Shown: positions 2,676 through 19,400 of the stretch, piece after piece
Numbering within the stretch: the first letter of the stretch is position 1
Layout of the letters: each line of letters opens with the position of its first letter
UHGV virus genome: UHGV-0097752
Origin: a virus
Direction: 5' to 3' (one strand)
Length of the DNA: 19,920 bases
The notes under the pieces: model-generated
The model's input: only the letters and a program-made list of their open reading frames with translations
Database searches by the model: none
What the model was told of the DNA's origin: nothing
Translations under genes and position numbers: made by a program

Positions 2676-2682
2676 GTAACAC

Positions 2683-3109: not shown

Positions 3110-3141
3110 GGGAATTACTGGATCAATCCACAGGAGTAATT

Positions 3142-3288
3142 ATGACAAAACAACTCAGTCCTTACCAGGACAAAATTCACAAACACATACTACGTGATCG
3201 CTTCCTGTCCAGCTTCAAGCAGCCTGGTCGATTCCGGTCTGAGTTGGAAAAAGTGAAGCTGATGCAGAAGGAGAAAGGTCATGAGTAA
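3142..3288 (+). CDS. Small hypothetical protein (48 aa) between cII and O
   Basis: ATG at 3142 with AGGAG 5 nt upstream; translates [48 protein letters not shown]; stop overlaps the O start. Below the 60-aa cut-off of the ORF track. Confidence 0.4.
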
Positions 3289-4141: not shown

Positions 4142-4248
4142 ACCATGAAATCAAAAATCAAATCGCTACTGGTCGCTGGTTATAACCACGGCTGGTTAAG
4201 TATTTCGTTTGTCGATTTCTGGTTTAAAAATCTCAATCTGAGGGAATC

Positions 4249-6129
4249 ATGACGCCAAGTGAACTCAGTGACCTGCTTTGGGCGCAGGTTGACAGGGTGG
4301 CTCCGCACCTGTTGCCAAACGGCAAGAAAGAGGGGCATGAGTGGGTTGCCGGTAACGTCAACGGTGACAAGGGAAACAGCCTTAAGGTCAACCTTAGCGG
4401 CAAGAAAAAATGGGCTGATTTCGCTGAGGGAGACGGCGGTGACATGCTTGATTTGTGGATGGCATGTCGTGGAATTAACCTGCATCAGGCTATGCAGGAA
4501 GCGAAAGCCTTTCTCGGAATCAAGGATGACGATCACCATTTCGATGCCAAACGTGAGAAGAAATTCTCCAGACCTGACCGCAAGAAAATCGCCCGCTACG
4601 TTACCAGAACAGAATCCCATCTTGAGTACCTGCAATCGCGTGGCATATCGCCAGAAGTCGTAAAGCGCTACGAGGTTGTCAGCGGCAAGGTGTGGAATGG
4701 AGAACGGGAACTGGATGCTCTGGTGATTCCGTACAAACGCGATGGTGAGTTGTTGCAGGTCAAGCGAATCAGCACTGAGCGCCCGGACGGGAAGAAAGTC
4801 ATTATGGCAGAAGGTGATTGCGAACCTTGTCTGTTCGGATGGCAGGCTCTGGACGCTGGCGTGAGGGCGGTTGTACTTTGCGAAGGCGAAATTGATTGTA
4901 TGAGCTATGCGCAATACGGCATCTCGGCGTTATCCGTGCCGTTTGGTGGCGGGAAAGGCGCTAAGCAACAGTGGATTGAGTTTGAGTATCACAACCTCGA
5001 CAGGTTTGAGGAAATATTCATCTCGATGGATGTTGATGATGTTGGTCGTGAAGCCGCAAGGGAAATCGCAAGCCGACTCGGTGAACATCGTTGCCGTCTT
5101 GTTACTCTGCCGTACAAAGACATCAACGAATGCCTGATGAACGGTGTTACCGAGGATGAAATCTGGCAGTACATCGGCACGGCATCCTACTTCGATCCTG
5201 AAGAACTCTACAGCGCGCGCGAGTTTTACCAGGACACTATCAACGCTTTCTACGGCAAGCAGCAGTATCTGTTTAATCCACCGTGGGAATCTCTGGCAGA
5301 TAAATTCCAGTTCCGTGAGGCCGAGTTGACGCTGGTCAATGGTGTGAACGGTCACGGAAAAACGGAGGTTGTCGGGCATATGGCACTTGAGGCAATGCGT
5401 CAGGGGGTGAAGACGTGCATCGCGTCACTTGAGCTGAAGCCTGGTATTCTCCTTAAGCGCCTTACCCGTCAGGCAACGTGCTGCAAGATGCCGCCAGTGC
5501 TGGAAATTGACTCTGCATTTAAATTTTATGACGAAAGACTTTGGGTGTTTGGCCTGACCGGAACGGCGAAAGCCGACAGACTGATCGAAATATTCGACTA
5601 CGCTCGCCGCCGATACGGGATCCAGTTATTCATCATCGACAGCCTAATGAAATGTGGCATAGGCGACGATGACTATAACGGGCAGAAGGCGTTTGTTGAC
5701 TCGATTTGCGACTTCAAAAACAAAACAAACTCCCACGTCATTCTCGTTACTCACTCGCGAAAAGGAGACAGCGAAGAAAAACCAACCGGGAAAATGGACG
5801 TAAAAGGCTCTGGAGCGATAACAGACCTGACAGACAACCTTTTCATCATCTGGCGTAACAAGGCTCGCGAGAGAGCGTTACAGAGAGTTCAGAGTGGTGA
5901 AAAGATGTCAGAGAAGGACGAACAGCTACTGGCATCTCCGGCATCTGTTTTGATGCTTGAAAAACAACGTAACGGCGAAGGTTGGGAAGGTGGTGTCCCG
6001 TTGTTCCTTGACGAGCAATCGCACCAGTTCCTGCAACTTGAATCAGGATCGCCATATAGCTACATCGCCAATATGCCGAAATCGGAATATGACGAGGCGT
6101 GGCGACAGGAAAACGTGACGGAGTATTAA
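4249..6129 (+). CDS. Bifunctional primase-helicase (TOPRIM primase domain plus RecA-like helicase domain)
   Basis: 626 aa. TOPRIM-like acidic motifs (VVLCEGEIDCMS, ISMDVDDVGREAA), Walker A GVNGHGKTEV, Walker B-like LFIIDSLMK. Follows O where lambda carries P. Confidence 0.8.
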   Translation: MTPSELSDLLWAQVDRVAPHLLPNGKKEGHEWVAGNVNGDKGNSLKVNLSGKKKWADFAEGDGGDMLDLWMACRGINLHQAMQEAKAFLGIKDDDHHFDAKREKKFSRPDRKKIARYVTRTESHLEYLQSRGISPEVVKRYEVVSGKVWNGERELDALVIPYKRDGELLQVKRISTERPDGKKVIMAEGDCEPCLFGWQALDAGVRAVVLCEGEIDCMSYAQYGISALSVPFGGGKGAKQQWIEFEYHNLDRFEEIFISMDVDDVGREAAREIASRLGEHRCRLVTLPYKDINECLMNGVTEDEIWQYIGTASYFDPEELYSAREFYQDTINAFYGKQQYLFNPPWESLADKFQFREAELTLVNGVNGHGKTEVVGHMALEAMRQGVKTCIASLELKPGILLKRLTRQATCCKMPPVLEIDSAFKFYDERLWVFGLTGTAKADRLIEIFDYARRRYGIQLFIIDSLMKCGIGDDDYNGQKAFVDSICDFKNKTNSHVILVTHSRKGDSEEKPTGKMDVKGSGAITDLTDNLFIIWRNKARERALQRVQSGEKMSEKDEQLLASPASVLMLEKQRNGEGWEGGVPLFLDEQSHQFLQLESGSPYSYIANMPKSEYDEAWRQENVTEY

Positions 6130-6157
6130 ATGACCATCTACATCACTGAGCTAATAA

Positions 6158-6190
6158 CAGGCCTGCTGGTAATCGCAGGCCTTTTTATTT
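6158..6190 (+). terminator. Intrinsic terminator after the replication genes (tR2-like position)
   Basis: AGGCCTGC-TGGTAATC-GCAGGCCT hairpin followed by TTTTTATTT. Confidence 0.55.
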
Positions 6191-6205
6191 GGGGGAGAGT
6201 AAATC

Positions 6206-6412
6206 GTGGCTGAGTTTATGCTCGTCGCATTCAAATGCGTTGGCGTTGGATGGATTCTTCTGACGTTTTTTATTGTTCTGCATAGCTACATTCGTCTTGT
6301 GAATGACGGTAAAGACCCATGGTATACGTTGTTTGGCGCTGCATTTGTCTGGGTGATTATCGGTGTTATGCCTGTTGTCGTAGCAAAAATGGCGTGGCGT
6401 TTTGTGAGTTGA
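6206..6412 (+). CDS. Small membrane protein (two predicted TM helices)
   Basis: 68 codons from GTG 6206, GGGGGAGAG RBS 6 nt upstream; strongly hydrophobic (LVAFKCVGVGWILLTFFIVL, LFGAAFVWVIIGVMPVVVA). Confidence 0.5.
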   Translation: MAEFMLVAFKCVGVGWILLTFFIVLHSYIRLVNDGKDPWYTLFGAAFVWVIIGVMPVVVAKMAWRFVS

Positions 6413-6429
6413 ACTGAGGGTAAGTATCG

Positions 6430-6750
6430 ATGGACGAATCAAGAAAGCAGTTTGAAGAAAGTTGGTTGCGACGTGGAGGCGAATCATCAGACCTTATCCG
6501 TTACCCTGAAAATCACCATGAAATTGGCAGTGGTGATATTGGTGGTCAATACGTGATGGACGATGTTCAAGGCCACTGGCAAACGTGGCAGGCATCGCGA
6601 GCAGCTATTGAAATAACCGCGCCAAAGTTTATCGACAGCAGAGAAGCATTAGCCAAAGGGTTTACTGTTGATTATTCCAATGGCTTCGGTGATGCAATGG
6701 ATGCTTATGAGGAAAACATCCGCGCTGCTGGAGTCAAAGTGAAGGAGTGA
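6430..6750 (+). CDS. Hypothetical protein (106 aa), unassigned
   Basis: ORF with GAGGG RBS about 8 nt upstream of ATG; acidic, no recognisable motif; co-oriented in the delayed-early operon. Confidence 0.55.
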   Translation: MDESRKQFEESWLRRGGESSDLIRYPENHHEIGSGDIGGQYVMDDVQGHWQTWQASRAAIEITAPKFIDSREALAKGFTVDYSNGFGDAMDAYEENIRAAGVKVKE

Positions 6751-6752
6751 GT

Positions 6753-6917
6753 ATGAGCGCATACGAAGAAATCATGTTAGCCCTGCGATTCTTTTTCGGT
6801 GTGGAAGAAGATGAAAACGTAAATGAGATTATCGGGCAAGACCATGACCCGATAGGGACTATTGCAGCTGCACTTGACGATTACAGGAGCGTAAATGGTG
6901 AGGAAACTAACGTTTGA
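6753..6917 (+). CDS. Small hypothetical protein (54 aa)
   Basis: ATG 6753 three nt after the upstream stop with GGAG RBS; MSAYEEIMLALRFFFGVEEDENVNEIIGQDHDPIGTIAAALDDYRSVNGEETNV; overlaps the ninB start. Confidence 0.4.
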   Translation: MSAYEEIMLALRFFFGVEEDENVNEIIGQDHDPIGTIAAALDDYRSVNGEETNV

Positions 6918-7338
6918 ACTAAGAAGCCCCATCCATCAGCAGAACGCCATTCAAGCTATCCAGCAAATCCTTCCAGACCCAACCAAACCAATCGTAGTGA
7001 CCATCCAGGAACGCAACCGCAGCTTAGACCAAAATCGGAAGCTTTGGGCTTGCCTTGGTGACGTCTCTCGTCAGGTTGAATGGCATGGTCGCTGGCTGGA
7101 TGCAGAAAGCTGGAAGTGTGTGTTTACCGCAGCATTAAAGCAGCAGGACGTTGTTCCTAACCTTGCCGGGAATGGCTTTGTGGTAATAGGCCAGTCAACC
7201 AGCAGGATGCGTGTAAGCGAATTTGCGGAGTTATTAGAGCTTATACAGGCATTCGGTACAGAGCGTGGCGTTAAGTGGTCAGACGAAGCTCGACTGGCTC
7301 TGGAGTGGAAAGCGAGATGGGGAGACAGGGCTGCATGA
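6895..7338 (+). CDS. ninB: NinB (Orf-family recombination mediator)
   Basis: 147 aa, near-identical to lambda NinB as recalled (QQILPDPTKPIVVTIQERNRSLDQNRKLWACLGDVSRQVEWHGRWLDAESWKCVF...). Confidence 0.9.
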   Translation: MVRKLTFELRSPIHQQNAIQAIQQILPDPTKPIVVTIQERNRSLDQNRKLWACLGDVSRQVEWHGRWLDAESWKCVFTAALKQQDVVPNLAGNGFVVIGQSTSRMRVSEFAELLELIQAFGTERGVKWSDEARLALEWKARWGDRAA

Positions 7339-8207
7339 TAAATGTCGTTAGTTTCTCCGGTGGCAGGACGTCAGCATATTTGCTCTGGCTAATGGAGCAA
7401 AAGCGACGGGCAGGTAAAGACGTGCATTACGTTTTCATGGATACAGGTTGTGAACATCCAATGACATATCGGTTTGTCAGGGAAGTTGTGAAGTTCTGGG
7501 ATATACCGCTCACCGTATTGCAGGTTGATATCAACCCGGAGCTTGGACAGCCAAATGGTTATACGGTATGGGAACCAAAGGATATTCAGACGCGAATGCC
7601 TGTTCTGAAGCCATTTATCGATATGGTAAAGAAATATGGCACTCCATACGTCGGCGGCGCGTTCTGCACTGACAGATTAAAACTCGTTCCCTTCACCAAA
7701 TACTGTGATGACCATTTCGGGCGAGGGAATTACACCACGTGGATTGGCATCAGAGCTGATGAACCGAAGCGGCTAAAGCCAAAGCCTGGAATCAGATATC
7801 TTGCTGAACTGTCAGACTTTGAGAAGGAAGATATCCTCGCATGGTGGAAGCAACAACCATTCGATTTGCAAATACCGGAACATCTCGGTAACTGCATATT
7901 CTGCATTAAAAAATCAACGCAAAAAATCGGACTTGCCTGCAAAGATGAGGAGGGATTGCAGCGTGTTTTTAATGAGGTCATCACGGGATCCCATGTGCGT
8001 GACGGACATCGGGAAACGCCAAAGGAGATTATGTACCGAGGAAGAATGTCGCTGGACGGTATCGCGAAAATGTATTCAGAAAATGATTATCAAGCCCTGT
8101 ATCAGGACATGGTACGAGCTAAAAGATTCGATACCGGCTCTTGTTCTGAGTCATGCGAAATATTTGGAGGGCAGCTTGATTTCGACTTCGGGAGGGAAGC
8201 TGCATGA
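7335..8207 (+). CDS. ninC: NinC (PAPS-reductase-like)
   Basis: Start at ATG 7335 (ATGA overlap with the ninB stop), [22 protein letters not shown]... The 310-aa track ORF has an upstream in-frame extension I do not consider translated. Confidence 0.9.
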
Positions 8208-8377
8208 TGCGATGTTATCGGTGCGGTGAATGCAAAGAAGATAACCGCTTCCGACCAAATCAACCTTACTGGAATCGATGGTGTCTCCGATGTGAAAGAA
8301 CACCAACAGGGGTGTTACCACTACCGCAGGAAAAGGAGGACGTGTGGCGAGACAGCGACGAAGTATCACCGACATAA
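8204..8377 (+). CDS. ninD: NinD (small Cys-rich zinc-ribbon-like protein)
   Basis: 57-aa [60 protein letters not shown]; ATGA overlap with the ninC stop; below the track length cut-off. Confidence 0.75.
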
Positions 8378-8520
8378 TCTGCGAAAACTGCAAATACCTT
8401 CCAACGAAGCGCTCCAGAAATAAACGCAAGCCAATCCCAAAAGAATCTGACGTAAAAACCTTCAATTACACAGCTCACCTGTGGGATATCCGGTGGCTAA
8501 GACATCGTGCGAGGAAATGA
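8344..8520 (+). CDS. ninE: NinE
   Basis: GTG start with AGGAGGA RBS; (M)[57 protein letters not shown], lambda NinE-like as recalled. Confidence 0.7.
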
Positions 8521-8885
8521 CAATGGATTATTCACAGTTAAGTGATTTTGAAATTAACTTAAAAGTCGCGCATATCGTGCTAGGAAAAAACAATTACGAC
8601 TGGGATCCAGAAAAGAAAGAAGTTTACTTGGCTGGAATTGATGGTGGTGAGTTTTTGCCTTGCGGATATTTCGACCCATGTAATATGGCCGCTGACGCAT
8701 ATCCGATCATCACTGAAAACAAAATTAGCACCATGTGGATGACAGCGGAAAAAGAATGGTGCGCATGGTCAGGAGGTGATTTAGAGGAAGGTTGTTGGGT
8801 TCCTGACTACTGCTTCTGCGGTGAATCGCCTCTCCGCGCCGCCATGATTGTCTTTCTCATGATGCAGGTCGCTAATAATGCTTAG
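8517..8885 (+). CDS. NinX-like protein (family assignment tentative)
   Basis: Likely start at ATG 8517 (ATGA overlap with the ninE stop), [44 protein letters not shown]...; common in nin regions of enterobacterial lambdoid prophages as recalled. Confidence 0.6.
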
Positions 8886-9054
8886 CCCATCCCAATCCCT
8901 TCAATACCAGAAAGAAAGCGTCGAGCGAGCTTTAACGTGCGCTAACTGCGGTCAGAAGCTGCATGTGCTGGAAGTTCACGTGTGTGAGCACTGCTGCGCA
9001 GAACTGATGAGCGATCCGAATAGCTCAATGTACGAGGAAGAAGACGATGAGTGA
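8878..9054 (+). CDS. ninF: NinF
   Basis: 58-aa [61 protein letters not shown], lambda NinF-like as recalled. Confidence 0.75.
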   Translation: MLSPSQSLQYQKESVERALTCANCGQKLHVLEVHVCEHCCAELMSDPNSSMYEEEDDE

Positions 9055-9556
9055 TGTTAAAGAAAAAGATATCCCCGGCTTTGAGGGTATATATAAAGTA
9101 ACTGAAAATGGAGACATCATTTCATGCCGTAAATCAAAAAAATTATCTCATGGCATTAAACTAGGAGGATATGCATTTGTCGGTCTGTATCCAGGTGGCG
9201 GGAAAAGACCATCATATAAAATGGTTCACAGAATTGTTGCAGAAGTATTTATTGATAACCCAGATGGCAAACCGGAAGTTAATCACAAGGATGGAAATAA
9301 ACTTAATAATAAAGTTGAAAATCTTGAGTGGGTAACGCGAACAGAAAATGCGAAACATGGATTTGATTCCGGATTGCTTGTTCATGGGTTTAATCATCAC
9401 TTCTGCAAACTAACGCCAGAACAAGTGAAATCAATATATAAATCAAAAGGCAAATACAGAGATATAGCCAAAGAATTTGGTGTTTGTGCGCAGACAGTGT
9501 GCAACATAAAAAACAAATCAGCGTACCGACGTTTTTTGGAGGGGATTGATGTTTAG
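9047..9556 (+). CDS. HNH homing-endonuclease-like protein (NUMOD4-like N-terminus, HNH_3 core, C-terminal HTH)
   Basis: 169 aa; GFEGIYKVTENGDIIS (NUMOD4-like), HRIVAEVFIDNPDGKPEVNHKDGNKLNNKVENLEWVTRTENAKHG (HNH_3-like), C-terminal KSKGKYRDIAKEFGVCAQTVCNI (HTH-like). Visibly more AT-rich than the flanking nin genes. Confidence 0.8.
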   Translation: MSDVKEKDIPGFEGIYKVTENGDIISCRKSKKLSHGIKLGGYAFVGLYPGGGKRPSYKMVHRIVAEVFIDNPDGKPEVNHKDGNKLNNKVENLEWVTRTENAKHGFDSGLLVHGFNHHFCKLTPEQVKSIYKSKGKYRDIAKEFGVCAQTVCNIKNKSAYRRFLEGIDV

Positions 9557-9824
9557 AAGCAAAAAATGGCTTCAGGCAGTCAGGGATATTGAATTTTGCG
9601 TTCTTTGCGGAAGATACGGAGTTCAGGCCGCTCACAGAAATGAAGGGAAGGGGGTTGGGATTAAAGTAGATGATTGCCTTACTGCTGCGCTATGTGTTGA
9701 TTGTCATTCAAGAATTGATAATGGGAGAGATATGAGCAGGGAAGAGCGAAGGGCTGAAATGGATCGGGCCATTGTGCTTACCCTTAAAAAATTGGTTAAC
9801 AATGGGAGGGTGTTTGTCCAATGA
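9549..9824 (+). CDS. DUF1364-family (YbcO-like) putative zinc-binding nuclease
   Basis: ATG 9549 with GGAGG RBS; KKWLQAVRDIEFCVLCGRYGVQAAHRNEGKG...CLTAALCVDCHSRIDNG; sits immediately upstream of rusA as in DLP12-type nin regions. Confidence 0.7.
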   Translation: MFRSKKWLQAVRDIEFCVLCGRYGVQAAHRNEGKGVGIKVDDCLTAALCVDCHSRIDNGRDMSREERRAEMDRAIVLTLKKLVNNGRVFVQ

Positions 9825-10183
9825 ACGAATATCAGTTTGTGCTTCCATACCCGCCGTCGGTGAATACCTACTGGCGAAGACGGGGAAGCCAATACTACAT
9901 CAGCGATAAAGGCCAGAAATACCGAAAAGACGTTCAGCAAATCATCCGCCAACTTAAGTTAGACATTTTCACCAAATCACGACTCCGCATCAAAGTCATC
10001 GCAGACGTTCCAGACTCCCGCCGCCGCGACCTCGACAACATCCTGAAAGGTTTACTCGACTCCCTTATCCACGCCGGATTTGCGGAAGACGACGAGCAAT
10101 TCGATGACATTCGCGTAATTCGTGGCGTGAAAGTACCAGGCGGAAGGCTTGGAATAAAAATCACCGAACTGGAGAACGCATGA
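9821..10183 (+). CDS. rusA: RusA Holliday-junction resolvase
   Basis: 120 aa; LPYPPSVNTYWRRRG ... DSRRRDLDNILKGLLDSLIHAGF ... GGRLGIKITE, matching the RusA family pattern. Confidence 0.9.
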   Translation: MNEYQFVLPYPPSVNTYWRRRGSQYYISDKGQKYRKDVQQIIRQLKLDIFTKSRLRIKVIADVPDSRRRDLDNILKGLLDSLIHAGFAEDDEQFDDIRVIRGVKVPGGRLGIKITELENA

Positions 10184-10368
10184 ACGCCACAATTCAAACG
10201 ATACCAGAGCTTCTTATCCAGACACGAGGTAATCAGACCGAAGTGGCGAGGATGCTTTCCTGTGCAAGAGGAACAGTGCTCAAGTACAACCGAGACAGCA
10301 AAGGTGAGCGTCACGTAATAGTTAACGGCGTCCTGATGGTCAAACAGGGCAAGAGGGGTAGACCATGA
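10180..10368 (+). CDS. ninH: NinH
   Basis: 62 aa; TIPELLIQTRGNQTEVARMLSCARGTVLKYNRDSKGERHVIVNGVLMV resembles lambda NinH as recalled. Confidence 0.8.
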   Translation: MNATIQTIPELLIQTRGNQTEVARMLSCARGTVLKYNRDSKGERHVIVNGVLMVKQGKRGRP

Positions 10369-10883
10369 GCATAAGAGAACTAAACCTCACCAAAGAACAG
10401 CACGATTGGCTGAATGGCTGGCTTGAACTGTGGGGTGCATGGGTTTACTCAGGTCGCCTGGAAAAGCGCATGAGCAGCGTAATAGCGAAGTTCATGGAGA
10501 GCGTAGAGCCGGGAAGAGTTATGACAAGGCCAATGTGTAATGATGATGATGGAATGTTGATTTCTCAGGTCGTCGATTCCGTCATGTACATTGACAAGAA
10601 AGCCTTTGGCATCCTCCTCAGCTACTACGCTCATGGTTCATCTAAGCGAGCAATTGCATCCTACTATCACGCGACTGCAAAGCCACGCAAGATGTGTGGA
10701 CGTGGTGGCGAGGGATGGAGAAAACCTTCACTGGCAACCTGTAGAAACGAAATTGACGACATCCTGAAAGCGTCGTTATTTGTTTTGTACCAGCCAATGC
10801 AAAATGCTTTCAAAATGCGTAAACGTGTTGAGAAAGTTAAGCATGTTGCTGTTAAAAGCCTTGACATGCAATTAGCCATTTAG
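10365..10883 (+). CDS. Q: Late-gene antiterminator Q (phage 82/21-type Q family)
   Basis: 172 aa; WLELWGAWVYSG and RPMCNDDDGMLISQVVDSV motifs typical of Phage_antitermQ proteins; directly upstream of a strong promoter and the lysis genes. Confidence 0.8.
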   Translation: MSIRELNLTKEQHDWLNGWLELWGAWVYSGRLEKRMSSVIAKFMESVEPGRVMTRPMCNDDDGMLISQVVDSVMYIDKKAFGILLSYYAHGSSKRAIASYYHATAKPRKMCGRGGEGWRKPSLATCRNEIDDILKASLFVLYQPMQNAFKMRKRVEKVKHVAVKSLDMQLAI

Positions 10884-10889
10884 CCATAA
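10861..10889 (+). promoter_or_regulatory. pR'-like late promoter (TTGACA-17 nt-CATAAT) overlapping the Q stop
   Basis: TTGACA at 10861-10866 and CATAAT at 10884-10889, 17-nt spacer; position matches lambdoid pR'/qut. Confidence 0.5.
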
Positions 10890-10900
10890 TTAGCAGGTAA

Positions 10901-10945
10901 GCTGCCGTTAGTGACTCTTAAGTTGCAACGGTGGCTTTTTTATTT
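10901..10945 (+). terminator. Candidate tR'-like intrinsic terminator
   Basis: Possible 9-bp stem (GCTGCCGTT/AACGGTGGC, including two G-U pairs) with a 17-nt loop, followed by TTTTTTATTT. The loop is long, so confidence is low. Confidence 0.35.
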
Positions 10946-11020
10946 GGGTCAGTCGTATAAAGGTCATTACGGAAGGCTGTTAACCTTCTTATCGTGGTTC
11001 GAGTCCACGCTGTCCCGCCA
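10946..11020 (+). tRNA. tRNA-Asn (anticodon GTT), phage-encoded
   Basis: Hand-folded cloverleaf: acceptor GGGTCAG/CTGTCCC (one T-T mismatch), anticodon stem GAAGG/CCTTC with loop CTGTTAA, T-arm CGTGG-TTCGAGT-CCACG, discriminator G, encoded CCA. D-stem has only 3 bp. Confidence 0.6.
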
Positions 11021-11025
11021 AATAT

Positions 11026-11101
11026 GCTGGTTTAGCTCCAATGGTAGAGCGGTCGCCTTGTAAGCGAATGGGTAGCGGTTCAAGTCCGTTAACCAGCACC
11101 A
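11026..11101 (+). tRNA. tRNA-Thr (anticodon TGT), phage-encoded
   Basis: Hand-folded cloverleaf: perfect 7-bp acceptor GCTGGTT/AACCAGC, D-arm GCTC-CAATGGTA-GAGC, anticodon loop CTTGTAA (stem has one G-A mismatch), T-arm AGCGG-TTCAAGT-CCGTT, discriminator A, encoded CCA. Confidence 0.65.
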
Positions 11102-11342
11102 TAACTGAGCCGTAGCCACTGGCTATCCTGAATTCATCAGTGATAGTTACGCTGCGGCCTTCTACACATGACCTTCGTGAAAGCGGTGGCAAGAGGTTGC
11201 GCTAACAACCTCATGCCGTTTTGCCCGTGCATATCGGTCACGAACAAATCTGATTACTAAACACAGTAGCCTGGATTTGTTCTATCAGTAATCGACCTTA
11301 TTTCTAATTAAATAGAGCAAATCCCCTTATTGGGGGTAAGAC

Positions 11343-11666
11343 ATGAAGATGCCTGAAAAACATGACCTGTTAGCCGCCATTCTCGCGGCAAAGGAACAAG
11401 GCATCGGGGCAATCCTTGCGTTTGCAATGGCGTACCTTCGCGGCAGATATAATGGCGGTGCGTTTACAAAAACAGTAATCGACGCAACGATGTGCGCCAT
11501 TATCGCCTGGTTCATTCGTGACCTTCTCGACTTCGCCGGACTAAGTAGCAATCTCGCTTATATAACGAGCGTGTTCATCGGCTACATCGGTACTGACTCG
11601 ATTGGTTCGCTTATCAAACGCTTCGCTGCTAAAAAAGCCGGAGTAGAAGATGGTGGAAATCAATAA
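11343..11666 (+). CDS. S: Holin S (class I, dual-start MKM motif)
   Basis: 107 aa, matches lambda S as recalled ([64 protein letters not shown]...). Confidence 0.95.
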
Positions 11667-12126
11667 TCAACGTAAGGCGTTCCTCGATATGCTGGCGTGG
11701 TCAGAGGGAACTGATAACGGACGGCAGAAAACCAGAAATCATGGTTATGACGTCATTGTAGGCGGAGAGCTATTTACTGATTACTCCGATCACCCTCGCA
11801 AACTTGTCACGCTAAACCCAAAACTCAAATCAACAGCCGCCGGACGTTACCAGCTTCTTTCCCGTTGGTGGGATGCCTATCGCAAGCAGCTTGGCCTGAA
11901 AGACTTCTCTCCGAAAAGCCAGGACGCTGTGGCATTGCAGCAGATTAAAGAGCGTGGCGCTTTACCGATGATTGATCGCGGCGATATTCGTCAGGCTATC
12001 GATCGTTGCAGCAATATCTGGGCGTCGTTACCTGGTGCAGGTTACGGTCAGTATGAACATAAAATCGGTGACCTGATTTCCCGGTTTAAAGAGGCTGGTG
12101 GGGTGGTAAATGAAGTTGAGCTATAA
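11650..12126 (+). CDS. R: Endolysin R (lytic transglycosylase)
   Basis: 158 aa, lambda R-like ([39 protein letters not shown]...); overlaps the S stop. Confidence 0.95.
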
Positions 12127-12502
12127 GCTGGCTATCTCTGCATTCTTCTTTACTGTCATCGGTTCTTTCATCTGGTCTGCTAACCACTACTACAGCAAAT
12201 ATCAGCACGAAAAGAAACGTGCTGATGAGGCTGTACGAAATGCTGAATCAGCAACAGCCATTACCAATAACGTCCTGCAATCACTGCAAATCGTCAATAC
12301 AGTACTGGAGGCTAACCAGCATGCAAAACAGCAGATCGCACTGGAGTCACAAAGAACCCAGGAAGATATCAAAATGGCCGTTGCGGATGATGATTGTGCT
12401 TCACGTCTTGTGCCTGCTGCCGCTGCTGAGCGGTTGCGGAAGTATGCGGACAGTTTACGTGAACACTCCGACGGTACCACTGCCAGCCAGCCTGACGGCT
12501 GA
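12110..12502 (+). CDS. Rz-like i-spanin (inner-membrane spanin subunit)
   Basis: 130 aa; N-terminal TM segment (LAISAFFFTVIGSFIWSANHYY) then a charged, helix-prone periplasmic region; follows R. Not the lambda Rz sequence. Confidence 0.7.
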   Translation: MKLSYKLAISAFFFTVIGSFIWSANHYYSKYQHEKKRADEAVRNAESATAITNNVLQSLQIVNTVLEANQHAKQQIALESQRTQEDIKMAVADDDCASRLVPAAAAERLRKYADSLREHSDGTTASQPDG

Positions 12503-12656
12503 AACCCCTCAGCCTGATTTACCTGATCATTTTACGTGGGGCTCGAGCTTAGATCTGAATGCCGCCTTGTTGTCTGCATTGGCGCAGTGTAATACCGATA
12601 AAGCTGACATCAGAAGGATTGAAGTTGAGCGTGGTCACATCATGCAAAAAAAATGA
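12387..12656 (+). CDS. Rz1-like o-spanin (outer-membrane lipoprotein subunit), overlapping Rz in another frame
   Basis: Different-frame ORF starting inside Rz: MMIVLHVLCLLPLLSGCGS (lipobox LLSGC) followed by a proline-rich segment. Extends 154 nt past the Rz stop. Start codon choice is uncertain. Confidence 0.55.
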   Translation: MMIVLHVLCLLPLLSGCGSMRTVYVNTPTVPLPASLTAETPQPDLPDHFTWGSSLDLNAALLSALAQCNTDKADIRRIEVERGHIMQKK

Positions 12657-12748
12657 TGTTCACTTTATTTTGTTCCTTGATTTGATATGTGATGACCCAA
12701 TAGATACAAAGCACCTGATTTGGGTGATTTTTTTGAAGGACTATACAC

Positions 12749-13069
12749 ATGAAAGACGGCATTTATTTTGTTGTGTTCAGAAGCGGTCATAATGATGTTG
12801 GCAATGGCACGGTCGTTGTGAAGGATAATGCGGTTAATGGTGGTGATTTTGGGTTTACCTATCAGGGGCGTGTACAAGATGGGGTATTGAAACTTCATGT
12901 ATCCCGCCATAACCCTTCAGCACAAAACGTTATTGCAGGCCTTAACGATTATGTGATGGATCTCTCTGTGAGAGATATTGGGGATGGTTATTACCTTGAA
13001 GGTGGAATTGCTGGTGTTCCTGGTGCGACTCTGTCTGTACAGGCGAAATTTATCGGCAATTTGATTTAA
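12749..13069 (+). CDS. GrlR-family protein (moron)
   Basis: 106 aa; MKDGIYFVVFRSGHNDVGNGTVVVKDNAVNGGDFGFTYQGRV...LKLHVSRHN...AKFIGNLI resembles the GrlR regulator of LEE-encoded type III secretion as recalled. AT-rich upstream region and a downstream terminator. Confidence 0.65.
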   Translation: MKDGIYFVVFRSGHNDVGNGTVVVKDNAVNGGDFGFTYQGRVQDGVLKLHVSRHNPSAQNVIAGLNDYVMDLSVRDIGDGYYLEGGIAGVPGATLSVQAKFIGNLI

Positions 13070-13084
13070 ATCGATTCTCTCCTA

Positions 13085-13116
13085 AACCGCCCACTTTCCA
13101 CGGGCGGTTTTTTGTT
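13085..13116 (+). terminator. Intrinsic terminator after the GrlR-like gene
   Basis: AACCGCCC-ACTTTCCAC-GGGCGGTT followed by TTTTTTGTT. Confidence 0.6.
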
Positions 13117-13164
13117 GCCATTACGATGGGTAGACCAGTAGTAATGATTGAAGGAGAAATTTAA

Positions 13165-13515
13165 ATGCCCCCACGAACCCCAAAAGCCTGCCGTGTTCGC
13201 GGCTGCCGCCATACCACCACTGACCCGTCAGGCTATTGCGAAAGCCACAAAAGCGAAGGCTGGAAGCAATACAAACCTGGACAATCCCGTCATCAGCGCG
13301 GCTACGGTTCGAAGTGGGACAGTATCCGCGCGCGTGTCCTGAAGCGTGACAAAGGCCTGTGTCAGTTATGTCTGCGTGCTGGTGTGGTGCGTGAGGCGAA
13401 AACCGTTGACCACATCATCCCTAAAGCGCATGGCGGCACTGATGCCGACAGTAATCTGCAGAGTCTGTGCTGGCCGTGCCATAAGGCGAAGACGGCCCGT
13501 GAACGGTTAAAGTGA
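13165..13515 (+). CDS. HNH endonuclease (terminase-associated type)
   Basis: 116 aa; Cys/His-rich with DHIIPKAHGGTDADSNLQSLCWPCHKAK; sits immediately upstream of the terminase small subunit, as in HK97-type cos packaging modules. Confidence 0.85.
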   Translation: MPPRTPKACRVRGCRHTTTDPSGYCESHKSEGWKQYKPGQSRHQRGYGSKWDSIRARVLKRDKGLCQLCLRAGVVREAKTVDHIIPKAHGGTDADSNLQSLCWPCHKAKTARERLK

Positions 13516-13630
13516 TAATAATTCTCAACTGTCTGAGGGGAGGGGCGGGTCACATCCCTGTGACCTGACGTCTTCCGGACTGCCCGCCCCATCGTTTTTT
13601 TATACCCGCGAAAAATGAAATTTAACCAGG
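13516..13630. other. Putative cos/packaging-site region (structured GC-rich inverted repeats plus T-tract)
   Basis: GGGGCGGG (13542-13549) ... CCCGCCCC (13583-13590) flanking an inner GTCACA-TCCC-TGTGAC hairpin, followed by TTTTTTT. Lies between the HNH and TerS genes, where HK97-like phages place cos. Could instead be a terminator. Confidence 0.35.
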
Positions 13631-13640
13631 AGTGCCGCAT

Positions 13641-14135
13641 ATGGCTGGAACGGCGGGGCGTTCCGGGCGTCGCCCCAAGCCAACGGCGCGCAAGGCGCTG
13701 GCCGGAAACCCCGGCAAGCGAGCCCTGAACAAAGATGAACCTGTTTTTACGCCCATCAAAGGTGTTGAGCCACCGGAGTGGTTCGCTGAAGAAGATCTCC
13801 CTCTCGCCACGATCATGTGGCAACTGACAACCAAAGAACTCTGCGGTCAGGGCCTGCTGTGCGTGACTGACCTCGCGGTGCTTGAGCGGTGGTGCGTGGC
13901 CTATGAGTTCTGGCGACGTGCCGTGAAAAATATTGCCATACAGGGCAACACCATCACCGGTGCAATGGGCGGCAGGGTCAAAAATCCGGAGCTGACCGCC
14001 AAAAAAGAACAGGAGTCCGAGATGAGCAGCACGGGGGCAATGCTCGGACTCGACCCCAGCAGCCGCCAGCGTCTGATTGGCCTGGCGGGGCAGAAGAAAG
14101 CCACTAACCCGTTTCTGAAAATCATCGAATCATGA
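13641..14135 (+). CDS. Terminase small subunit (P27 family)
   Basis: [14 protein letters not shown]... N-terminus typical of P27-family TerS; ATG 13641 preferred (AGGAG 8 nt upstream) over the GTG at 13632 in the track; ATGA overlap with the TerL start. Confidence 0.85.
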
Positions 14136-15865
14136 GCCGGAAATCTTACCCCAACGTAAATGCTGCCAATCAGTATGCCCGTGATGTCGTGCGCGGAAAG
14201 ATTGTGGCCTGCCAGTTTGTGATTCAGGCCTGCCAGCGCCATCTTGATGACCTGATGGCGGAAAAAAGTAAGTCGTTTCGTTACCGCTTCGACAAGGACC
14301 TGGCTGAACGGGCCGCGAAATTTATTCAGCTGTTGCCGCACACCAAGGGGGAGTGGGCATTCAAACGGATGCCCATCACGCTGGAGCCGTGGCAGCTATT
14401 TGTGATCTGCTGTGCGTTTGGCTGGGTCAATAAAGGCACCCGGTTGCGCCGCTTCCGGGAGGTGTACACCGAAATCCCCCGTAAGAACGGCAAATCAGCA
14501 ATCTCTGCCGGTGTTGCCCTGTATTGTTTTGCCTGTGATAACGAGTTTGGCGCGGAAGTGTATTCCGGTGCCACGACAGAGAAACAGGCGTGGGAAGTCT
14601 TTCGCCCGGCGCGACTGATGTGTAAACGCACACCCATGCTGACGGAAGCGTTCGGGATTGAGGTTAACGCCTCAAACATGAACCGTCCGGAGGATGGTGC
14701 GCGTTTTGAACCGCTGATCGGTAACCCCGGTGATGGTTCATCACCCCACTGTGCGGTGGTGGATGAATATCACGAGCACGCCACCGATGCGCTTTACACC
14801 ACGATGCTTACCGGGATGGGGGCGCGACGTCAGCCACTGATGTGGGCTATCACTACCGCCGGGTACAACATTGAGGGGCCGTGCTACGACAAGCGGCGGG
14901 AAGTTATCGAGATGCTCAACGGTTCGGTACCCAACGATGAACTGTTCGGGATCATCTATACCGTTGATGAAGGTGACGACTGGACCGACCCGCAGGTGCT
15001 AGAAAAAGCTAACCCGAATATTGGCGTGTCGGTTTATCGCGAATTTTTGTTAAGTCAGCAGCAGCGTGCGAAAAATAACGCCCGTCTGGCAAACGTCTTT
15101 AAAACAAAACACCTCAATATCTGGGTGTCGGCGCGTTCGGCGTATTTCAACCTGGTGAGCTGGCAGAGCTGCGAGGATAAATCACTGACCCTTGAGCAGT
15201 TCGAGGGGCAGCCGTGCATTCTGGCCTTTGACCTGGCGCGTAAGCTGGATATGAACAGCATGGCGCGACTTTATACCCGCGAGATTGACGGTAAAACGCA
15301 TTACTACAGTGTGGCCCCGCGTTTCTGGGTACCGTATGACACGGTGTACAGCGTCGAGAAAAATGAAGATCGACGGACAGCCGAACGCTTTCAGAAATGG
15401 GTGGAAATGGGCGTTCTGACCGTTACCGATGGTGCGGAGGTGGATTATCGCTACATCCTCGAGGAGGCCAAAGCGGCGAACAAAATCAGCCCGGTCAGTG
15501 AGTCACCCATCGACCCCTTCGGGGCGACCGGGTTGTCACATGACCTTGCTGATGAAGACCTGAACCCCATCACTATCATTCAGAACTACACCAACATGTC
15601 CGACCCGATGAAAGAGCTGGAAGCGGCAATTGAATCGGGGCGCTTTCATCATGATGGCAATCCCATCATGACCTGGTGTATCGGCAACGTGGTCGGCAAA
15701 ACCATTCCGGGTAACGATGATGTGGTGAAGCCCGTCAAAGAGCAGGCGGAAAACAAAATCGATGGTGCAGTTGCGCTGATTATGGCGGTTGGCAGAGCCA
15801 TGCTGTACGAGAAAGAAGACACGCTGTCTGACCACATTGAGTCCTATGGGATCCGCTCGCTTTAA
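14132..15865 (+). CDS. Terminase large subunit
   Basis: 577 aa; Walker A-like [11 protein letters not shown] in the ATPase domain and a C-terminal nuclease-like region with conserved acidic residues; position and size as expected. Confidence 0.9.
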
Positions 15866-15876
15866 CTGAGGTAATT

Positions 15877-16059
15877 ATGATCATGCTGATTCTCGCGCCT
15901 CTGGTGGGCGTGCTGGGGGCGCTTTTGCTGGCGTATGGTGCCTGGCTGATTTATCCCCCGGCGGGGTTTGTTGTTGCCGGGGCGTTGTGCCTGTTCTGGT
16001 CGTGGCTGGTGGCGCGATATCTCGACCGTACACAGTCGTCAGTCGGCGGAGGTAAATAG
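15877..16059 (+). CDS. Small hydrophobic membrane protein
   Basis: 60 aa, two hydrophobic stretches ([39 protein letters not shown]); between TerL and portal. Confidence 0.5.
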
Positions 16060-17300
16060 TGTTCTTTTCGGGATTATTTCAACGAAAAAGTGACGCACCG
16101 GTGACCACGCCAGCAGAGCTGGCGGATGCCATCGGGTTGTCCTACGACACCTATACCGGAAAGCAGATCAGCAGTCAGCGGGCCATGCGACTGACGGCGG
16201 TTTTTTCCTGCGTCAGGGTGCTGGCAGAGTCGGTCGGGATGTTGCCCTGCAATCTGTATCACCTGAACGGCAGCCTGAAGCAGAGAGCCACCGGCGAACG
16301 TCTGCATAAACTGATCTCCACGCATCCCAATGGCTATATGACGCCGCAGGAGTTCTGGGAGCTGGTGGTCACCTGTCTGTGCCTGCGGGGAAACTTTTAC
16401 GCCTACAAAGTGAAAGCATTTGGCGAAGTGGCTGAACTGCTGCCCGTCGATCCCGGCTGTGTGGTACCGAAGCTTAACAGTAGCTGGGAGCCGGTCTATC
16501 AGGTCACATTCCCGGATGGCTCCACGGATGTACTGAGCCAGGAGGATATCTGGCATGTGCGCACGCTGACGCTGGACGGACTGGTGGGGCTGAATCCCAT
16601 CGCCTATGCCCGCGAGGCAATATCGCTGGCGGCAGCGACCGAAGAGCACGGGGCCAGACTGTTCAGCAATGGCGCGGTGACGTCGGGTGTGTTGCGTACA
16701 GAGCAGACGCTGTCAGATCAGGCTTATGAGCGCCTGAAGAAAGATTTTGAGGAGCGTCACACCGGGCTTGGCAATGCTCACCGCCCGATGATCCTTGAGA
16801 TGGGGCTGGACTGGAAGTCGATGGCGCTGAACGCCGAGGACAGCCAGTTCCTGGAAACCCGCAAGTTTCAGCTTGAAGAAATCTGTCGTCTGTTCCGGGT
16901 GCCGTTGCACATGGTGCAGAACACCGATCGCGCCACCTTCAACAATATCGAAGAGCTGGGGCTGGGATTTATCAACTATTCACTGGTGCCGTATCTGACC
17001 CGCATCGAACAGCGGATCAACACCGGACTGGTACGAAAAAGTAAGCAGGGCGTTTATTACGCCAAATTTAACGCCGGGGCGTTACTGCGCGGGGATATGA
17101 AGTCCCGTTTTGAAGCCTACGCCACCGGGATCAACTGGGGAATTTACTCTCCCAATGACTGCCGCGACCTGGAAGATATGAATCCGCGTCCCGGTGGTGA
17201 TGTCTATCTCACACCGATGAACATGACCACGAAACCCTCCGATGGCAGTAAAGCCGGTAAGCAGAAGGATAACGCCAATGCAGACGAAACAACGTCTTGA
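16059..17300 (+). CDS. Portal protein (HK97 family)
   Basis: 413 aa after TerL; GTG start overlapping the upstream stop; size, position and composition fit HK97-family portals. Confidence 0.85.
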   Translation: MFFSGLFQRKSDAPVTTPAELADAIGLSYDTYTGKQISSQRAMRLTAVFSCVRVLAESVGMLPCNLYHLNGSLKQRATGERLHKLISTHPNGYMTPQEFWELVVTCLCLRGNFYAYKVKAFGEVAELLPVDPGCVVPKLNSSWEPVYQVTFPDGSTDVLSQEDIWHVRTLTLDGLVGLNPIAYAREAISLAAATEEHGARLFSNGAVTSGVLRTEQTLSDQAYERLKKDFEERHTGLGNAHRPMILEMGLDWKSMALNAEDSQFLETRKFQLEEICRLFRVPLHMVQNTDRATFNNIEELGLGFINYSLVPYLTRIEQRINTGLVRKSKQGVYYAKFNAGALLRGDMKSRFEAYATGINWGIYSPNDCRDLEDMNPRPGGDVYLTPMNMTTKPSDGSKAGKQKDNANADETTS

Positions 17301-17928
17301 TGTACCGCTGAGTCTGAAATCTGTCAGTGACTCCGGTGAGTTTGAAGGGTATGGCTCCGTCTTTGGTGTAAAGGACAGCCACGATGATGTGGTGATGTCC
17401 GGGGCATTTGCTGCTTCCCTGCGGGCGTGGAGTGACAGAAAAGCGTTACCTGCGCTGCTCTGGCAGCACCGCATGGATGAGCCCATCGGTGTTTACACCG
17501 AAATGAAGGAAGACGATGTCGGGCTTTACGTCAGGGGGCGGTTGCTCATTGATGATGATCCCCTGGCAAAACGCGCACATGCACACATGAAGGCCGGTTC
17601 GTTAACCGGCCTTTCTATTGGGTACGTCTTGAAAGACTGGGAATACGACCGGAGCAAAGAAGCCTTTCTGCTGAAAGAAATCGACCTCTGGGAAGTCAGT
17701 CTGGTGACGTTCCCGTCTAACGACGAGGCGCGGATCAGCGACGTCAAGAACGCACTGGCCCGCGGGGAAATCCCCGAACAGAAAAAAATCGAAAGAGTCC
17801 TGCGTGATGTCGGACTCTCCCGTACCCAGGCCAAAGCATTCATGGCCGGGGGCTATGGCGCACTGTCCCTGCGCGACGCTGAGGATGTGGGCTCTGCACT
17901 GAATGCACTGAAAAATCTGAACTTCTAA
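17278..17928 (+). CDS. Prohead maturation protease (HK97 family)
   Basis: Track ORF 17242-17928; start more likely ATG 17278 (MQTKQRLDV...). Between portal and major capsid as in HK97; active-site residues not individually verified. Confidence 0.8.
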   Translation: MQTKQRLDVPLSLKSVSDSGEFEGYGSVFGVKDSHDDVVMSGAFAASLRAWSDRKALPALLWQHRMDEPIGVYTEMKEDDVGLYVRGRLLIDDDPLAKRAHAHMKAGSLTGLSIGYVLKDWEYDRSKEAFLLKEIDLWEVSLVTFPSNDEARISDVKNALARGEIPEQKKIERVLRDVGLSRTQAKAFMAGGYGALSLRDAEDVGSALNALKNLNF

Positions 17929-17942
17929 TCAGGAGAAATACG

Positions 17943-19398: not shown

Positions 19399-19400
19399 GT

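Follow-up and report, generated by a model that had tools for sequence, protein, structure and literature searches.

What are the two tRNA genes and the 240 nt of apparently non-coding DNA that lie between the late promoter and the lysis genes of virus genome UHGV-0097752, and what might they do for the phage? We examined a stretch of 19,920 nt of this genome (the window), in which all the features described here lie on the + strand. We are confident that the region is the late control region of a mosaic lambdoid prophage, in which a phage-21-type Q/pR′/tR′ module and its usual tRNA pair are joined to a lambda-type leader and lysis genes. Because the tRNA pair has been published and the 240 bases are the conserved lambda S leader, the finding is an ordinary one, except for some of the folding of the leader.

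The Q gene (10365–10883) encodes a phage-21-type late antiterminator (Pfam PF06530, Phage_antitermQ; 90 bits) that shares 85% identity with phage 21 Q and departs from it mainly in the C-terminal part. The late promoter pR′ (10861–10890) has a −35 element TTGACA (10861–10866) and a −10 element CATAAT (10885–10890) separated by an 18-base spacer, and it matches 11 of the 12 consensus positions in a promoter scan. Base for base, it can be aligned to the Sf6 promoter and to the pR′, QBE and start site that are annotated for phage 21. Two QBE-like direct repeats, ATTAGCCA (10871–10878) and TTTAGCCA (10879–10886), were identified between the −35 and −10 elements by alignment, which likewise places the putative transcription start at about 10897. 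The short pR′ transcript ends in an intrinsic terminator, tR′ (10899–10945), formed by a hairpin (10899–10937; −20.2 kcal/mol, z = −4.5) and then TTTTTTATTT, the U-run of which ends at 10945; tRNA-Asn begins at the next base. The tR′ sequence is identical to the annotated terminators of phage 21 and Sf6. With a PF06530 Q close to Q21, and two repeats inside the promoter followed by a terminator, this is a phage-21-type late module, and read-through of tR′ is probably Q-dependent. The promoter scan, the tR′ fold and the coordinates thus bear out the description in an earlier note, made from the letters of the DNA, of a Q-dependent late promoter and tR′ just before the tRNAs, with the lysis genes downstream.

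ARAGORN calls both of the tRNA genes that the earlier note had reported, a tRNA-Asn with anticodon GUU (10946–11020) and a tRNA-Thr with anticodon UGU (11026–11101), each with its CCA encoded. They match Rfam family RF00005 with 55.3 bits (E = 8e-11) and 61.2 bits (E = 2e-12), respectively, against a gathering score of 29 bits, so neither falls below the threshold in the kind of predictor check that the note had proposed. The tRNA-Asn has discriminator G73 and all the conserved tertiary nucleotides (U8, A14, G18–G19, T54–Ψ55–C56 and A58). Its anticodon loop, CUGUUAA, and its T loop are identical to those of E. coli asnT, with a G before the CCA, whereas its acceptor stem (GGGUCAG) is very different from that of the host (UCCUCUG). 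The tRNA-Thr has G1–C72 and C2–G71, ends of the form GC...GC-A-CCA and a loop CUUGUAA as in host thrU, together with U8, G18–G19 and the T loop UUCAAGU. Asparagine identity for E. coli AsnRS resides in G34–U35–U36 and discriminator G73, and threonine identity for ThrRS in G1–C72, C2–G71, G35 and U36; by these rules, the phage tRNA-Asn and tRNA-Thr carry all the identity elements of their respective synthetases.

The pair has been described before, which the earlier note did not recognise. The tRNA region matches 180 phage records; the cassette matches that of SfI with 100% identity and has been annotated in several phages, among them 21, Sf6 and BTP1. The tRNA-Asn is identical in phages 21, Sf6 and SfI; the tRNA-Thr is that of SfI and differs by one base from those of phages 21 and Sf6 (position 26; 11051 in the window). 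The Sf6 annotation gives the promoter, the qut site, the terminator and both tRNAs as 'similar to phage 21', and that of phage 21 gives the QBE, the start site, a pause element, the terminator and both tRNAs. A scan of genome contigs with a pattern of 15 specified bases gave only chance matches in unrelated phyla. In the literature, the SfI pair is placed downstream of Q, is noted also in Sf6, ST64T, PS3 and p21, and is accompanied by a reported bias towards ACA, with no bias seen for the Asn codons (PMC3636060). In phage L, the late operon opens with tRNAs at its 5′ end (PMC8022706), and two tRNA genes are counted in the phage 21 genome (PMC9119081). In work on the BTP1 prophage, the two tRNA genes had to be excluded when highly expressed genes were listed, and directly behind them the lytic operon begins (PMC7067206). 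We found the BTP1 region to be 97–99% identical to that of the window.

The stem imperfections that had led the earlier note to question whether the tRNAs function are all present: U4·U in the acceptor stem of tRNA-Asn, U13·U22 closing its D stem and G27·A43 in the anticodon stem of tRNA-Thr. A further irregularity had been missed, a C in the D loop of tRNA-Thr at the position of the near-invariant A14. As U4·U, which recurs in 22 of the 22 tRNA-Asn copies examined, G27·A43 and C14 might lower tRNA function, the genes could be decaying passengers or incipient pseudogenes, kept only by block exchange of the pR′–tR′–tRNA–leader module and of no gain to the phage. The tRNA-Thr of P1, canonical where that of the window is not, fits such decay, as do the chimeric tRNA-Thr of JLK-2012, which ARAGORN does not call, and the second tRNA of ST64T, which is likewise uncalled. 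The cassette is also absent from 56 of 76 related IMG/VR loci; with so many close relatives lacking it, it must be dispensable. Decay is nevertheless hard to reconcile with scores of about twice the Rfam threshold, with intact identity elements and with a 156-nt tRNA block that is 98–100% identical across Escherichia, Shigella and Salmonella phages, against 94–98% for the adjoining leader. A compensatory double change in the acceptor stem of one relative (G5–C68 to U5–A68) and the transcription of the BTP1 homologues also argue against it, and we regard decay as quite improbable. Taken together, the identity elements, the compensatory stem changes in relatives and the transcription in BTP1 make both tRNAs look functional.

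If the tRNAs work, which codons would they serve? The earlier note had suggested looking for enrichment of AAC/AAU and ACA in the late genes. The pattern is the reverse for ACA, which accounts for 30% of the Thr codons of early genes in the window but for 12% in the late genes and none of 27 in the capsid gene, and Asn codon usage is unremarkable. Late expression of the pair therefore fits codon supplementation poorly, and the scant use of ACA by the late head genes counts among the arguments for decay. The usual account, in which phage tRNAs feed the codons of highly expressed late genes, does not suit the head genes of this phage; any benefit is most plausibly for the rare ACA codon. The Asn/Thr pair is nonetheless maintained across many temperate phages of enterobacteria, P1 included.

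The poor match between late codons and anticodons leaves room for another benefit, namely that the tRNAs are spares for host tRNA-Asn and tRNA-Thr that are cleaved or depleted late in infection by tRNases of the host or of a competitor. Phage tRNAs that escape anticodon nucleases are described in other systems, and P1, a temperate phage that is unrelated, has the same pair. With an acceptor stem so unlike that of the host beside an identical anticodon loop, the phage tRNA-Asn could be missed by a nuclease specific for the acceptor stem. The same identity of the anticodon loops cuts the other way for anticodon nucleases, which would also cleave the phage tRNAs, and nothing in the window or in the cited literature connects a defence system with tRNA-Asn or tRNA-Thr. 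We hold this role to be unlikely.

Downstream of the pair, the stretch that the earlier note had called an unexplained 240-nt leader has a clear origin. Positions 11103–11342 correspond to lambda 44945–45185 with 95.9% identity over 240 nt, and are thus lambda's own S leader, including its characterised upstream stem-loop. We found no conserved open reading frame in 11102–11342, in agreement with the note; the 30-codon frame at 11168–11260 was rejected as a gene, being frameshifted in lambda and without an ATG in HK544. The hairpin that the note had singled out exists, but at 11193–11212 (GAGGTTG / CGCTAA / CAACCTC), two bases to the right of where it had been placed, and it caps a larger structure.

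Of the note's two ideas for this hairpin, a remnant of a third tRNA and part of a structured leader, the second is the better: the leader folds at −86.9 kcal/mol (z = −5.2) and its helices are conserved. A third tRNA gene directly after the pair does occur in some relatives, such as JLK-2012 (Gly-TCC), and some pair-less relatives carry a T-arm-like fragment in the equivalent slot. In the leader of the window, however, neither Rfam (E ≤ 1) nor ARAGORN, which finds the two genes only, gives a tRNA match, and similarity to the JLK-2012 tRNA-Gly is not significant, with 1,393 of 2,000 shuffles scoring as well. Moreover, the nested 69-nt structure that the hairpin caps is conserved in phages in which these tRNAs never occur, and we consider the tRNA-remnant origin, for the hairpin as for the whole leader, effectively refuted.

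A search of 10300–11800 against Rfam 15 (E ≤ 1) returned no family besides the tRNA matches and one chance snoRNA match, and the lambda leader gave no match at E ≤ 10. The small RNAs AgvB, AsxR, StxS, Pas and STnc100, encoded by prophages in the pR′ region, occupy a related genomic position, but none of them has an Rfam match here. Searches of the available papers found neither the leader sequences nor the tandem late terminators of lambda.

Upstream of the S stem-loop, the leader is predicted to form H0, H1 and H2. H0 (11109–11158), directly 3′ of the tRNA pair, is a long, irregular, roughly 20-bp hairpin that the window shares with phage 21 and lambda; its folding energy in most relatives is −27.7 kcal/mol. 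The phage 21 copy runs into 7 consecutive U, where the window has the interrupted CUUCUAC; because of that run, H0 looks like a terminator in phage 21 only. H1 (11175–11243) is a domain of nested helices in the RNAalifold consensus: P1 (11175–11179 with 11239–11243), P2 (11183–11187 with 11223–11228), P3 (GGCA, 11188–11191, with UGCC, 11214–11217) and P4 (11193–11199 with 11206–11212, loop CGCUAA), the last being the hairpin of the earlier note. H2 (11244–11280), supported by the fold, the consensus and the pair counts, joins ACAAAUC (11244–11250) to GAUUUGU (11274–11280) and has an inner UAC/GUA helix. P4 and the GUUUUG after it might be taken for an intrinsic terminator, a reading that we rejected: P22-type leaders have UGAUCU or UGAUUU in place of the U-run, which is therefore not conserved, and GUUUUG more plausibly forms an internal loop that separates P2 from P3. 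A terminator scan of the + strand of the leader gave no site.

The 3′ arm of H2 lies inside a nearly invariant 10-mer, GGAUUUGUUC (11273–11282), that is almost unchanged even in loci retrieved by a different anchor. A third copy of the motif, GAGCAAAUCC (11315–11324), is complementary to GGAUUUGUUC and overlaps the 5′ arm of the next hairpin. Complementarity between the two is complete (10/10, G·U allowed) in 117 of 118 unique leaders, compared with 1 of 118 after shuffling.

Are these helices formed in RNA, or is the leader kept as DNA, as a recombination linker for Q and lysis swaps or as a protein-binding site, with the helices as incidental inverted repeats? Several observations suit a role of the DNA: mosaic joints coincide precisely with the edges of the leader (behind the tR′ U-run, behind the tRNA CCA, near 11163–11173 and near 11286), holins of three unrelated families and several types of Q are found attached to it, and in some phages a homing-endonuclease-like gene is inserted in H1. 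Among 52 diverse sequences, 92.7% of the cells in the leader helices pair, against 29–41% (about 35%) when the partners are slid, and four pairs are altered on both sides, which favours RNA; this covariation mostly splits two clades, so independent events are few. Pairing on the − strand is as frequent (94.2%, against 92.7% on the + strand), and the non-Watson–Crick cells of H1 and H2 are split about evenly between G·U and A·C and do not tell the folding strand apart, which again leaves room for selection on DNA. Other comparisons speak for RNA. The leaders L036 and L106 have a very different stem sequence but keep the hairpin in the same position with a similar loop. Variants of the third copy are A-to-G only, and opposite U, so their pairing is preserved only in sense-strand RNA, and the last hairpin is an RNA element characterised experimentally in lambda. 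Maintenance of the leader as DNA is thus possible, if doubtful.

If the structures act as RNA, H0, H1 and H2 would most likely serve as backup terminators or pause sites for polymerase that is not modified by Q, protect the 5′ end of the processed late mRNA, or modulate the S start. They are conserved, show a few compensatory changes, stand upstream of three unrelated holin families and seem to be unnamed. Luk and Szybalski reportedly described, in 1983, tandem terminators downstream of lambda t′R1, for which H0 and H1 would presumably be the candidate sites.

We tentatively propose that some 170 nt, between 11175 and the start of S, are an unnamed conserved cis-acting RNA, found before holins of at least three unrelated families in lambdoid and P22-like phages, in which H1, with its three to four nested helices, is followed by a '1-2-3' switch that may tune translation of holin and antiholin. 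In one state, GGAUUUGUUC could pair with an upstream copy of GAACAAAUC to form H2, leaving intact the stem-loop that sequesters the Shine–Dalgarno sequence; in the other, it could pair with a downstream copy that overlaps this stem-loop, which would be opened. The two states are predicted to differ on average by no more than about 2–3 kcal/mol. Were the switch real, lysis timing would be set in part by structural tuning of holin and antiholin translation. The S leader is among the most conserved non-coding stretches in lambdoid phages and travels with unrelated holins, and functional helices in it would add a layer, unstudied so far, to the classic lambda model of lysis timing.

The S start itself is that of lambda. 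The first gene of the lysis cassette, S (11343–11666; Pfam PF05106, Phage_holin_3_1; 105 bits), has a dual start at ATG 11343 and ATG 11349, and the Sf6 annotation includes S107 and S105 homologues. A stem-loop CCCC / UUAUU / GGGGG (11322–11336) upstream of it holds the GGGGG Shine–Dalgarno sequence for Met1; its sequence and position (−21 to −7) are as in lambda, and the stem sequence covaries among relatives. In fact 11322–11351 is identical to lambda, with the sequestered GGGGG, a UAAG Shine–Dalgarno sequence for Met3 and the Met-Lys-Met start. The lambda stem-loop has been characterised experimentally and limits ribosome access to the Met1 Shine–Dalgarno sequence (bioRxiv 10.1101/2025.05.14.654169). 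With dual start and stem-loop both present, the window carries a lambda-type S initiation region.

These elements suggest the following course of late expression. Lambdoid pR′ promoters fire constitutively, and that of the window would likewise be active at all times. Without Q, polymerase would halt at tR′ and release an RNA of about 45–50 nt. Judging by the 85% identity to Q21 and the alignment of the site, Q bound to the repeats between −35 and −10 would make the paused polymerase resistant to terminators. Polymerase that passes tR′ would then transcribe tRNA-Asn(GUU), tRNA-Thr(UGU), the 240-nt leader, S-R-Rz and the head genes. From this long transcript both tRNAs would presumably be released by RNase P and the 3′ trimming enzymes of the host, as in the thrU-tyrU-glyT-thrT-tufB operon, and AsnRS and ThrRS should charge them, given that the known identity elements are present, so that they may enlarge the host pools. 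In the last 20 nt of the leader, the stem-loop would restrict ribosomes at the Met1 Shine–Dalgarno sequence and so set the ratio of antiholin to holin.

How does this arrangement compare with known systems? Shiga-toxin phages carry tRNA genes (ileZ-argN-argO) downstream of Q and pR′. The presence of tRNAs upstream of stx2AB is mentioned in PMC7547250. As in the window, the genes sit between the late promoter and terminator and the late genes of lambdoid prophages, but their anticodons and the type of Q differ and the sequences are unrelated. A separate promoter has been mapped between tR′ and the tRNAs of an Stx2 phage, for which the window, with tRNA-Asn starting right after the U-run, has no room. 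In the E. coli thrU-tyrU-glyT-thrT-tufB operon, as annotated, tRNAs are likewise co-transcribed upstream of a protein gene, and have to be cut out of the precursor; as a host operon without antitermination, it is an analogy for processing only.

The tRNA-Asn(GTT)–tRNA-Thr(TGT) tandem of phage P1 shares the anticodons, their order and the close spacing. Its tRNA-Thr shares 81% identity, the T arm being almost unchanged, and both the acceptor stem and the anticodon stem show compensatory changes; unlike that of the window it is canonical throughout, with A14 and an anticodon stem free of mismatches. The P1 tRNA-Asn is far more divergent, and the context of the pair is not a Q-dependent late leader.

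The closest counterpart of the upstream half is the late region of phage 21, shared with Sf6, SfI, BTP1, SPN9CC, vB_SosS_Oslo and mEp506, in which pR′, QBE, tR′, tRNA-Asn, a 5-nt spacer and tRNA-Thr follow one another as in the window and tRNA-Asn abuts the terminator U-run. Phage 21 itself differs in its repeats (ATTGAGCA/AATGAGCA, where the window has ATTAGCCA/TTTAGCCA as does Sf6), in a diverged C terminus of Q and in sharing only the first 62 nt of the leader, after which it has its own pinholin cassette. Lambda is the counterpart of the downstream half. It has its own Q/pR′/6S-RNA module and, where the window has the 156-nt tRNA cassette, a 159-nt filler in which neither ARAGORN nor Rfam finds a tRNA. 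We rejected the idea that the filler is two decayed tRNAs, suggested by its similar length and a shared 9-mer, TAAGCGAAT: the alignment is not significant, being equalled in 261 of 2,000 shuffles for the cassette and 135 of 2,000 for tRNA-Thr. The P3–P4 stem of lambda pairs without a break over 10 bp; that of the window has an A·A mismatch, and its P2 a 1-nt deletion. In the tR′–S leader, lambda and the window share the stem-loop, the Shine–Dalgarno sequence and the dual start.

The two tRNA genes proposed in the earlier note, tRNA-Asn(GTT) and tRNA-Thr(TGT), are both called by ARAGORN, at 10946–11020 and 11026–11101 (both on the + strand), and score 55.3 and 61.2 bits against the Rfam tRNA model, above its gathering score of 29. 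Beyond these two, ARAGORN calls no tRNA gene anywhere in the 19.9-kb window, and a downstream hairpin once suggested to be the remnant of a third does not hold as such. The reported stem imperfections are present: tRNA-Asn has a U4.U mismatch and also U13.U22, and tRNA-Thr has G27.A43, together with C at position 14, where A14 is near-invariant.

Upstream of this cassette lies a late control module. An ORF ending at 10883 encodes the late antiterminator Q (PF06530, 90 bits; 85% identity to phage 21 Q), and a promoter scan identified a near-consensus sigma-70 late promoter, pR′ (TTGACA, 10861–10866; 18-nt spacer; CATAAT, 10885–10890). The terminator tR′ follows as a hairpin at 10899–10937 (−20.2 kcal/mol, z = −4.5) and then TTTTTTATTT; because this run stops at 10945, tRNA-Asn starts at 10946, with its first base directly 3′ of the run. 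Whereas the tRNAs of the Stx2 phage have a separate promoter, tRNA-Asn here abuts tR′ and leaves no space for one, so that, on this layout, transcription of the tRNAs would have to come from pR′, through Q-dependent read-through or terminator leakage. The differences between the window's Q and that of phage 21 are mostly C-terminal (residues ~94–172, window 10644–10880). The Q-binding repeats (10871–10886) are ATTAGCCA/TTTAGCCA, the Sf6 version, whereas phage 21 has ATTGAGCA/AATGAGCA. A study of phage L had proposed co-varying specificity of the Q protein and its DNA site (PMC8022706), with which the C-terminal divergence and altered repeats would be consistent.

Judged from their sequences, both tRNAs are most likely working but dispensable. 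In favour of function, tRNA-Asn has an anticodon loop and T loop as in host asnT and the discriminator G73, and tRNA-Thr combines the anticodon loop of thrU with G1-C72 and C2-G71; these are identity elements read by AsnRS and ThrRS. Both genes hardly vary across the fetched loci (22 and 21 copies), and the Thr acceptor stem of one relative carries a double change from G5-C68 to U5-A68. Against function, the U.U mismatch of tRNA-Asn is repaired in no copy examined, and the cassette is absent from 56 of the 76 related loci. The Asn(GTT)-Thr(TGT) tandem also occurs in phage P1 (L130, 525–678), where 2 nt separate the genes. The P1 tRNA-Thr shares 81% identity with the window's, the differences in the acceptor and anticodon stems being compensatory, but is canonical in having A14 and a perfect anticodon stem, neither of which the window's has. 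This pair is possibly an ancient mobile unit shared by temperate enterobacterial phages. Behind the same tR′, JLK-2012 (L128, 601–834) has three tRNAs: an Asn gene identical to the window's, a Thr chimera and, after it, tRNA-Gly(TCC). The chimera, for which ARAGORN makes no call, joins a 5′ part from the phage gene to a 3′ part like host thrU, suggesting that phage and host tRNA genes have recombined. ARAGORN likewise makes no call for the second ST64T tRNA; in these two relatives the cassette is eroded, which also speaks against function.

Codon supplementation, the standard idea of what such tRNAs are for, fits this window poorly because ACA sits in early genes and is scarce in late ones. 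ACA accounts for 30% of Thr codons (14.1 per 1,000) in the early genes (943–10883), for 12% (6.5 per 1,000) in the late lysis and head genes (11343–19724) and for 0 of the 27 Thr codons in the major capsid gene. The ACA enrichment for which a comparison of late genes had been proposed is thus found, but in early and regulatory genes, the reverse of the expectation for a late-expressed tRNA-Thr(UGU). The AAC share of Asn codons is 54% in early genes, 62% in late genes and 76% in the major capsid gene. As a speculative alternative, the tRNAs might stand in for host tRNAs under attack, and any benefit to the phage is putative.

Between the tRNA-Thr CCA and the lambda-type holin gene S (ORF at 11343; PF05106) lies a leader of about 240 nt, previously described as unexplained. 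It matches lambda's own: 11103–11342 corresponds to lambda 44945–45185 at 95.9% identity, the homology starting two bases past the CCA. Phage 21 has only the first 62 nt in common (11102–11163), HK544-type phages share the leader from 11173 on, and P22 and many relatives retain 11173–11286 at 74–79% identity. This leader module is found in front of holins that belong to three Pfam families (Phage_holin_3_1, Phage_holin_2_3 and Phage_holin_3_3). In relatives without tRNAs, a filler of ~160 nt takes the place of the cassette, precisely filling the interval from the U-run to the leader. Four such fillers (L051, L009, L055 and L100 from IMG/VR; slot at window 10946–11101) end in a T-arm and acceptor-like piece, GCCGGTTCGATTCCGGCCGCCACAACC, which gives a sub-threshold Rfam tmRNA-like match (20.2 bits, E = 3e-6) and may derive from a tRNA-like gene that once occupied this slot.

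The reading of this region as a structured leader stands: its predicted fold has −86.9 kcal/mol (z = −5.2), and its helices are conserved. The last hairpin (11322–11336), upstream of the S start, equals the characterised lambda stem-loop controlling access to the Met1 Shine–Dalgarno sequence. Before it come H0, a ~20-bp hairpin (11109–11158; −27.7 kcal/mol) that is terminator-like in phage 21 but not in the window; H1 (11175–11243), with nested helices P1 to P4; and H2 (11244–11280), whose 3′ arm lies within a nearly invariant 10-mer. The hairpin noted earlier exists as P4, at 11193–11212, two bases to the right of its estimated position. Across 52 diverse sequences, 92.7% of cells in H1 and H2 are paired, compared with 29–41% in slid registers, although the H2 3′ arm is partly an ascertainment anchor, having served to fetch some of the sequences. 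Four pairs are changed on both sides, and the covariation score, which mostly separates the lambda-type from the P22-type clade, was matched by none of 500 shuffles. G.U and A.C cells are balanced, so either strand could be the folding one. The module matches no Rfam family, and its sequences were not found in the literature searched. In L036 and L106 (IMG/VR; ~window 11188–11217), a hairpin with a wholly different stem, GGATACTG/CAGTATCC, and the loop CGCAAA (CGCTAA in the window) lies at the matching position ahead of the conserved 10-mer, which supports the idea that the hairpin, and not its sequence, is conserved. In L140, L147 and L193 (IMG/VR), leader homology stops just past GGCAAG, inside H1 (~window 11193), and the ORF that follows (MLSENAKDIAGYEGKY...) resembles, by the look of its sequence, an HNH/NUMOD-type homing endonuclease, as if homing elements had targeted the conserved leader.

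The leader contains three copies of one 10-mer: GAACAAAUC (11244–11252), its complement GGAUUUGUUC (11273–11282) and GAGCAAAUCC (11315–11324). GGAUUUGUUC pairs with the upstream copy in H2 and is also complementary to the downstream copy, which overlaps the Shine–Dalgarno stem-loop. Complementarity to the downstream copy is complete (10 of 10 positions) in 117 of the 118 unique leaders, as against 1 of 118 after shuffling; it is kept across a spacer varying from 26 to 32 nt, and the three common variants of the downstream copy are all A/G changes opposite U. In constrained folds, H2 with the stem-loop is the more stable state, by a mean of 2.2 kcal/mol in lambda-type and 3.3 kcal/mol in P22-type leaders, and by a wider gap in the window (−28.9 versus −22.0 kcal/mol). 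The alternative pairing is compatible with a switch acting on the S start, which we regard as a lead rather than a result.

The window as a whole is mosaic: its head genes are SfII/SfIV-like, its lysis genes lambda-like and its Q 21-like. The linear SfII genome starts at window 13516 and that of SfIV at 13574, which places the cohesive-end site in the interval separating the lysis genes from the small terminase gene; given the SfII start, the window crosses the cos junction, like a prophage or circular genome.

The Asn/Thr cassette itself is already known, both annotated and published, and the 480-nt region around it has matches in 180 phage records. The SfI paper places the tRNA pair downstream of Q, lists it also in Sf6, ST64T, PS3 and p21, and describes a bias for ACA but none for Asn (PMC3636060). 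For phage L, tRNAs that open the late operon are discussed, their mode of expression being stated as unknown (PMC8022706). The BTP1 prophage has a region 97–99% identical to the window; there, the tRNA genes are set aside when highly expressed genes are listed, and the start of the lytic operon is placed directly 3′ of them (PMC7067206). The Sf6 counterpart is 97.5% identical; its annotation includes the late promoter, qut site, tR′, tRNA-Asn and tRNA-Thr, each with a remark on its similarity to phage 21. In turn, the annotation of the complete phage 21 genome gives pR′, two Q-binding elements, the start site, a sigma-dependent pause element, the terminator and then both tRNAs, in the same order as in the window. 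tRNA-Asn is the same in the window, phage 21 and Sf6, tRNA-Thr is one base off both (position 26, window 11051), and the whole 156-nt block (10946–11101) is 100% identical in SfI.
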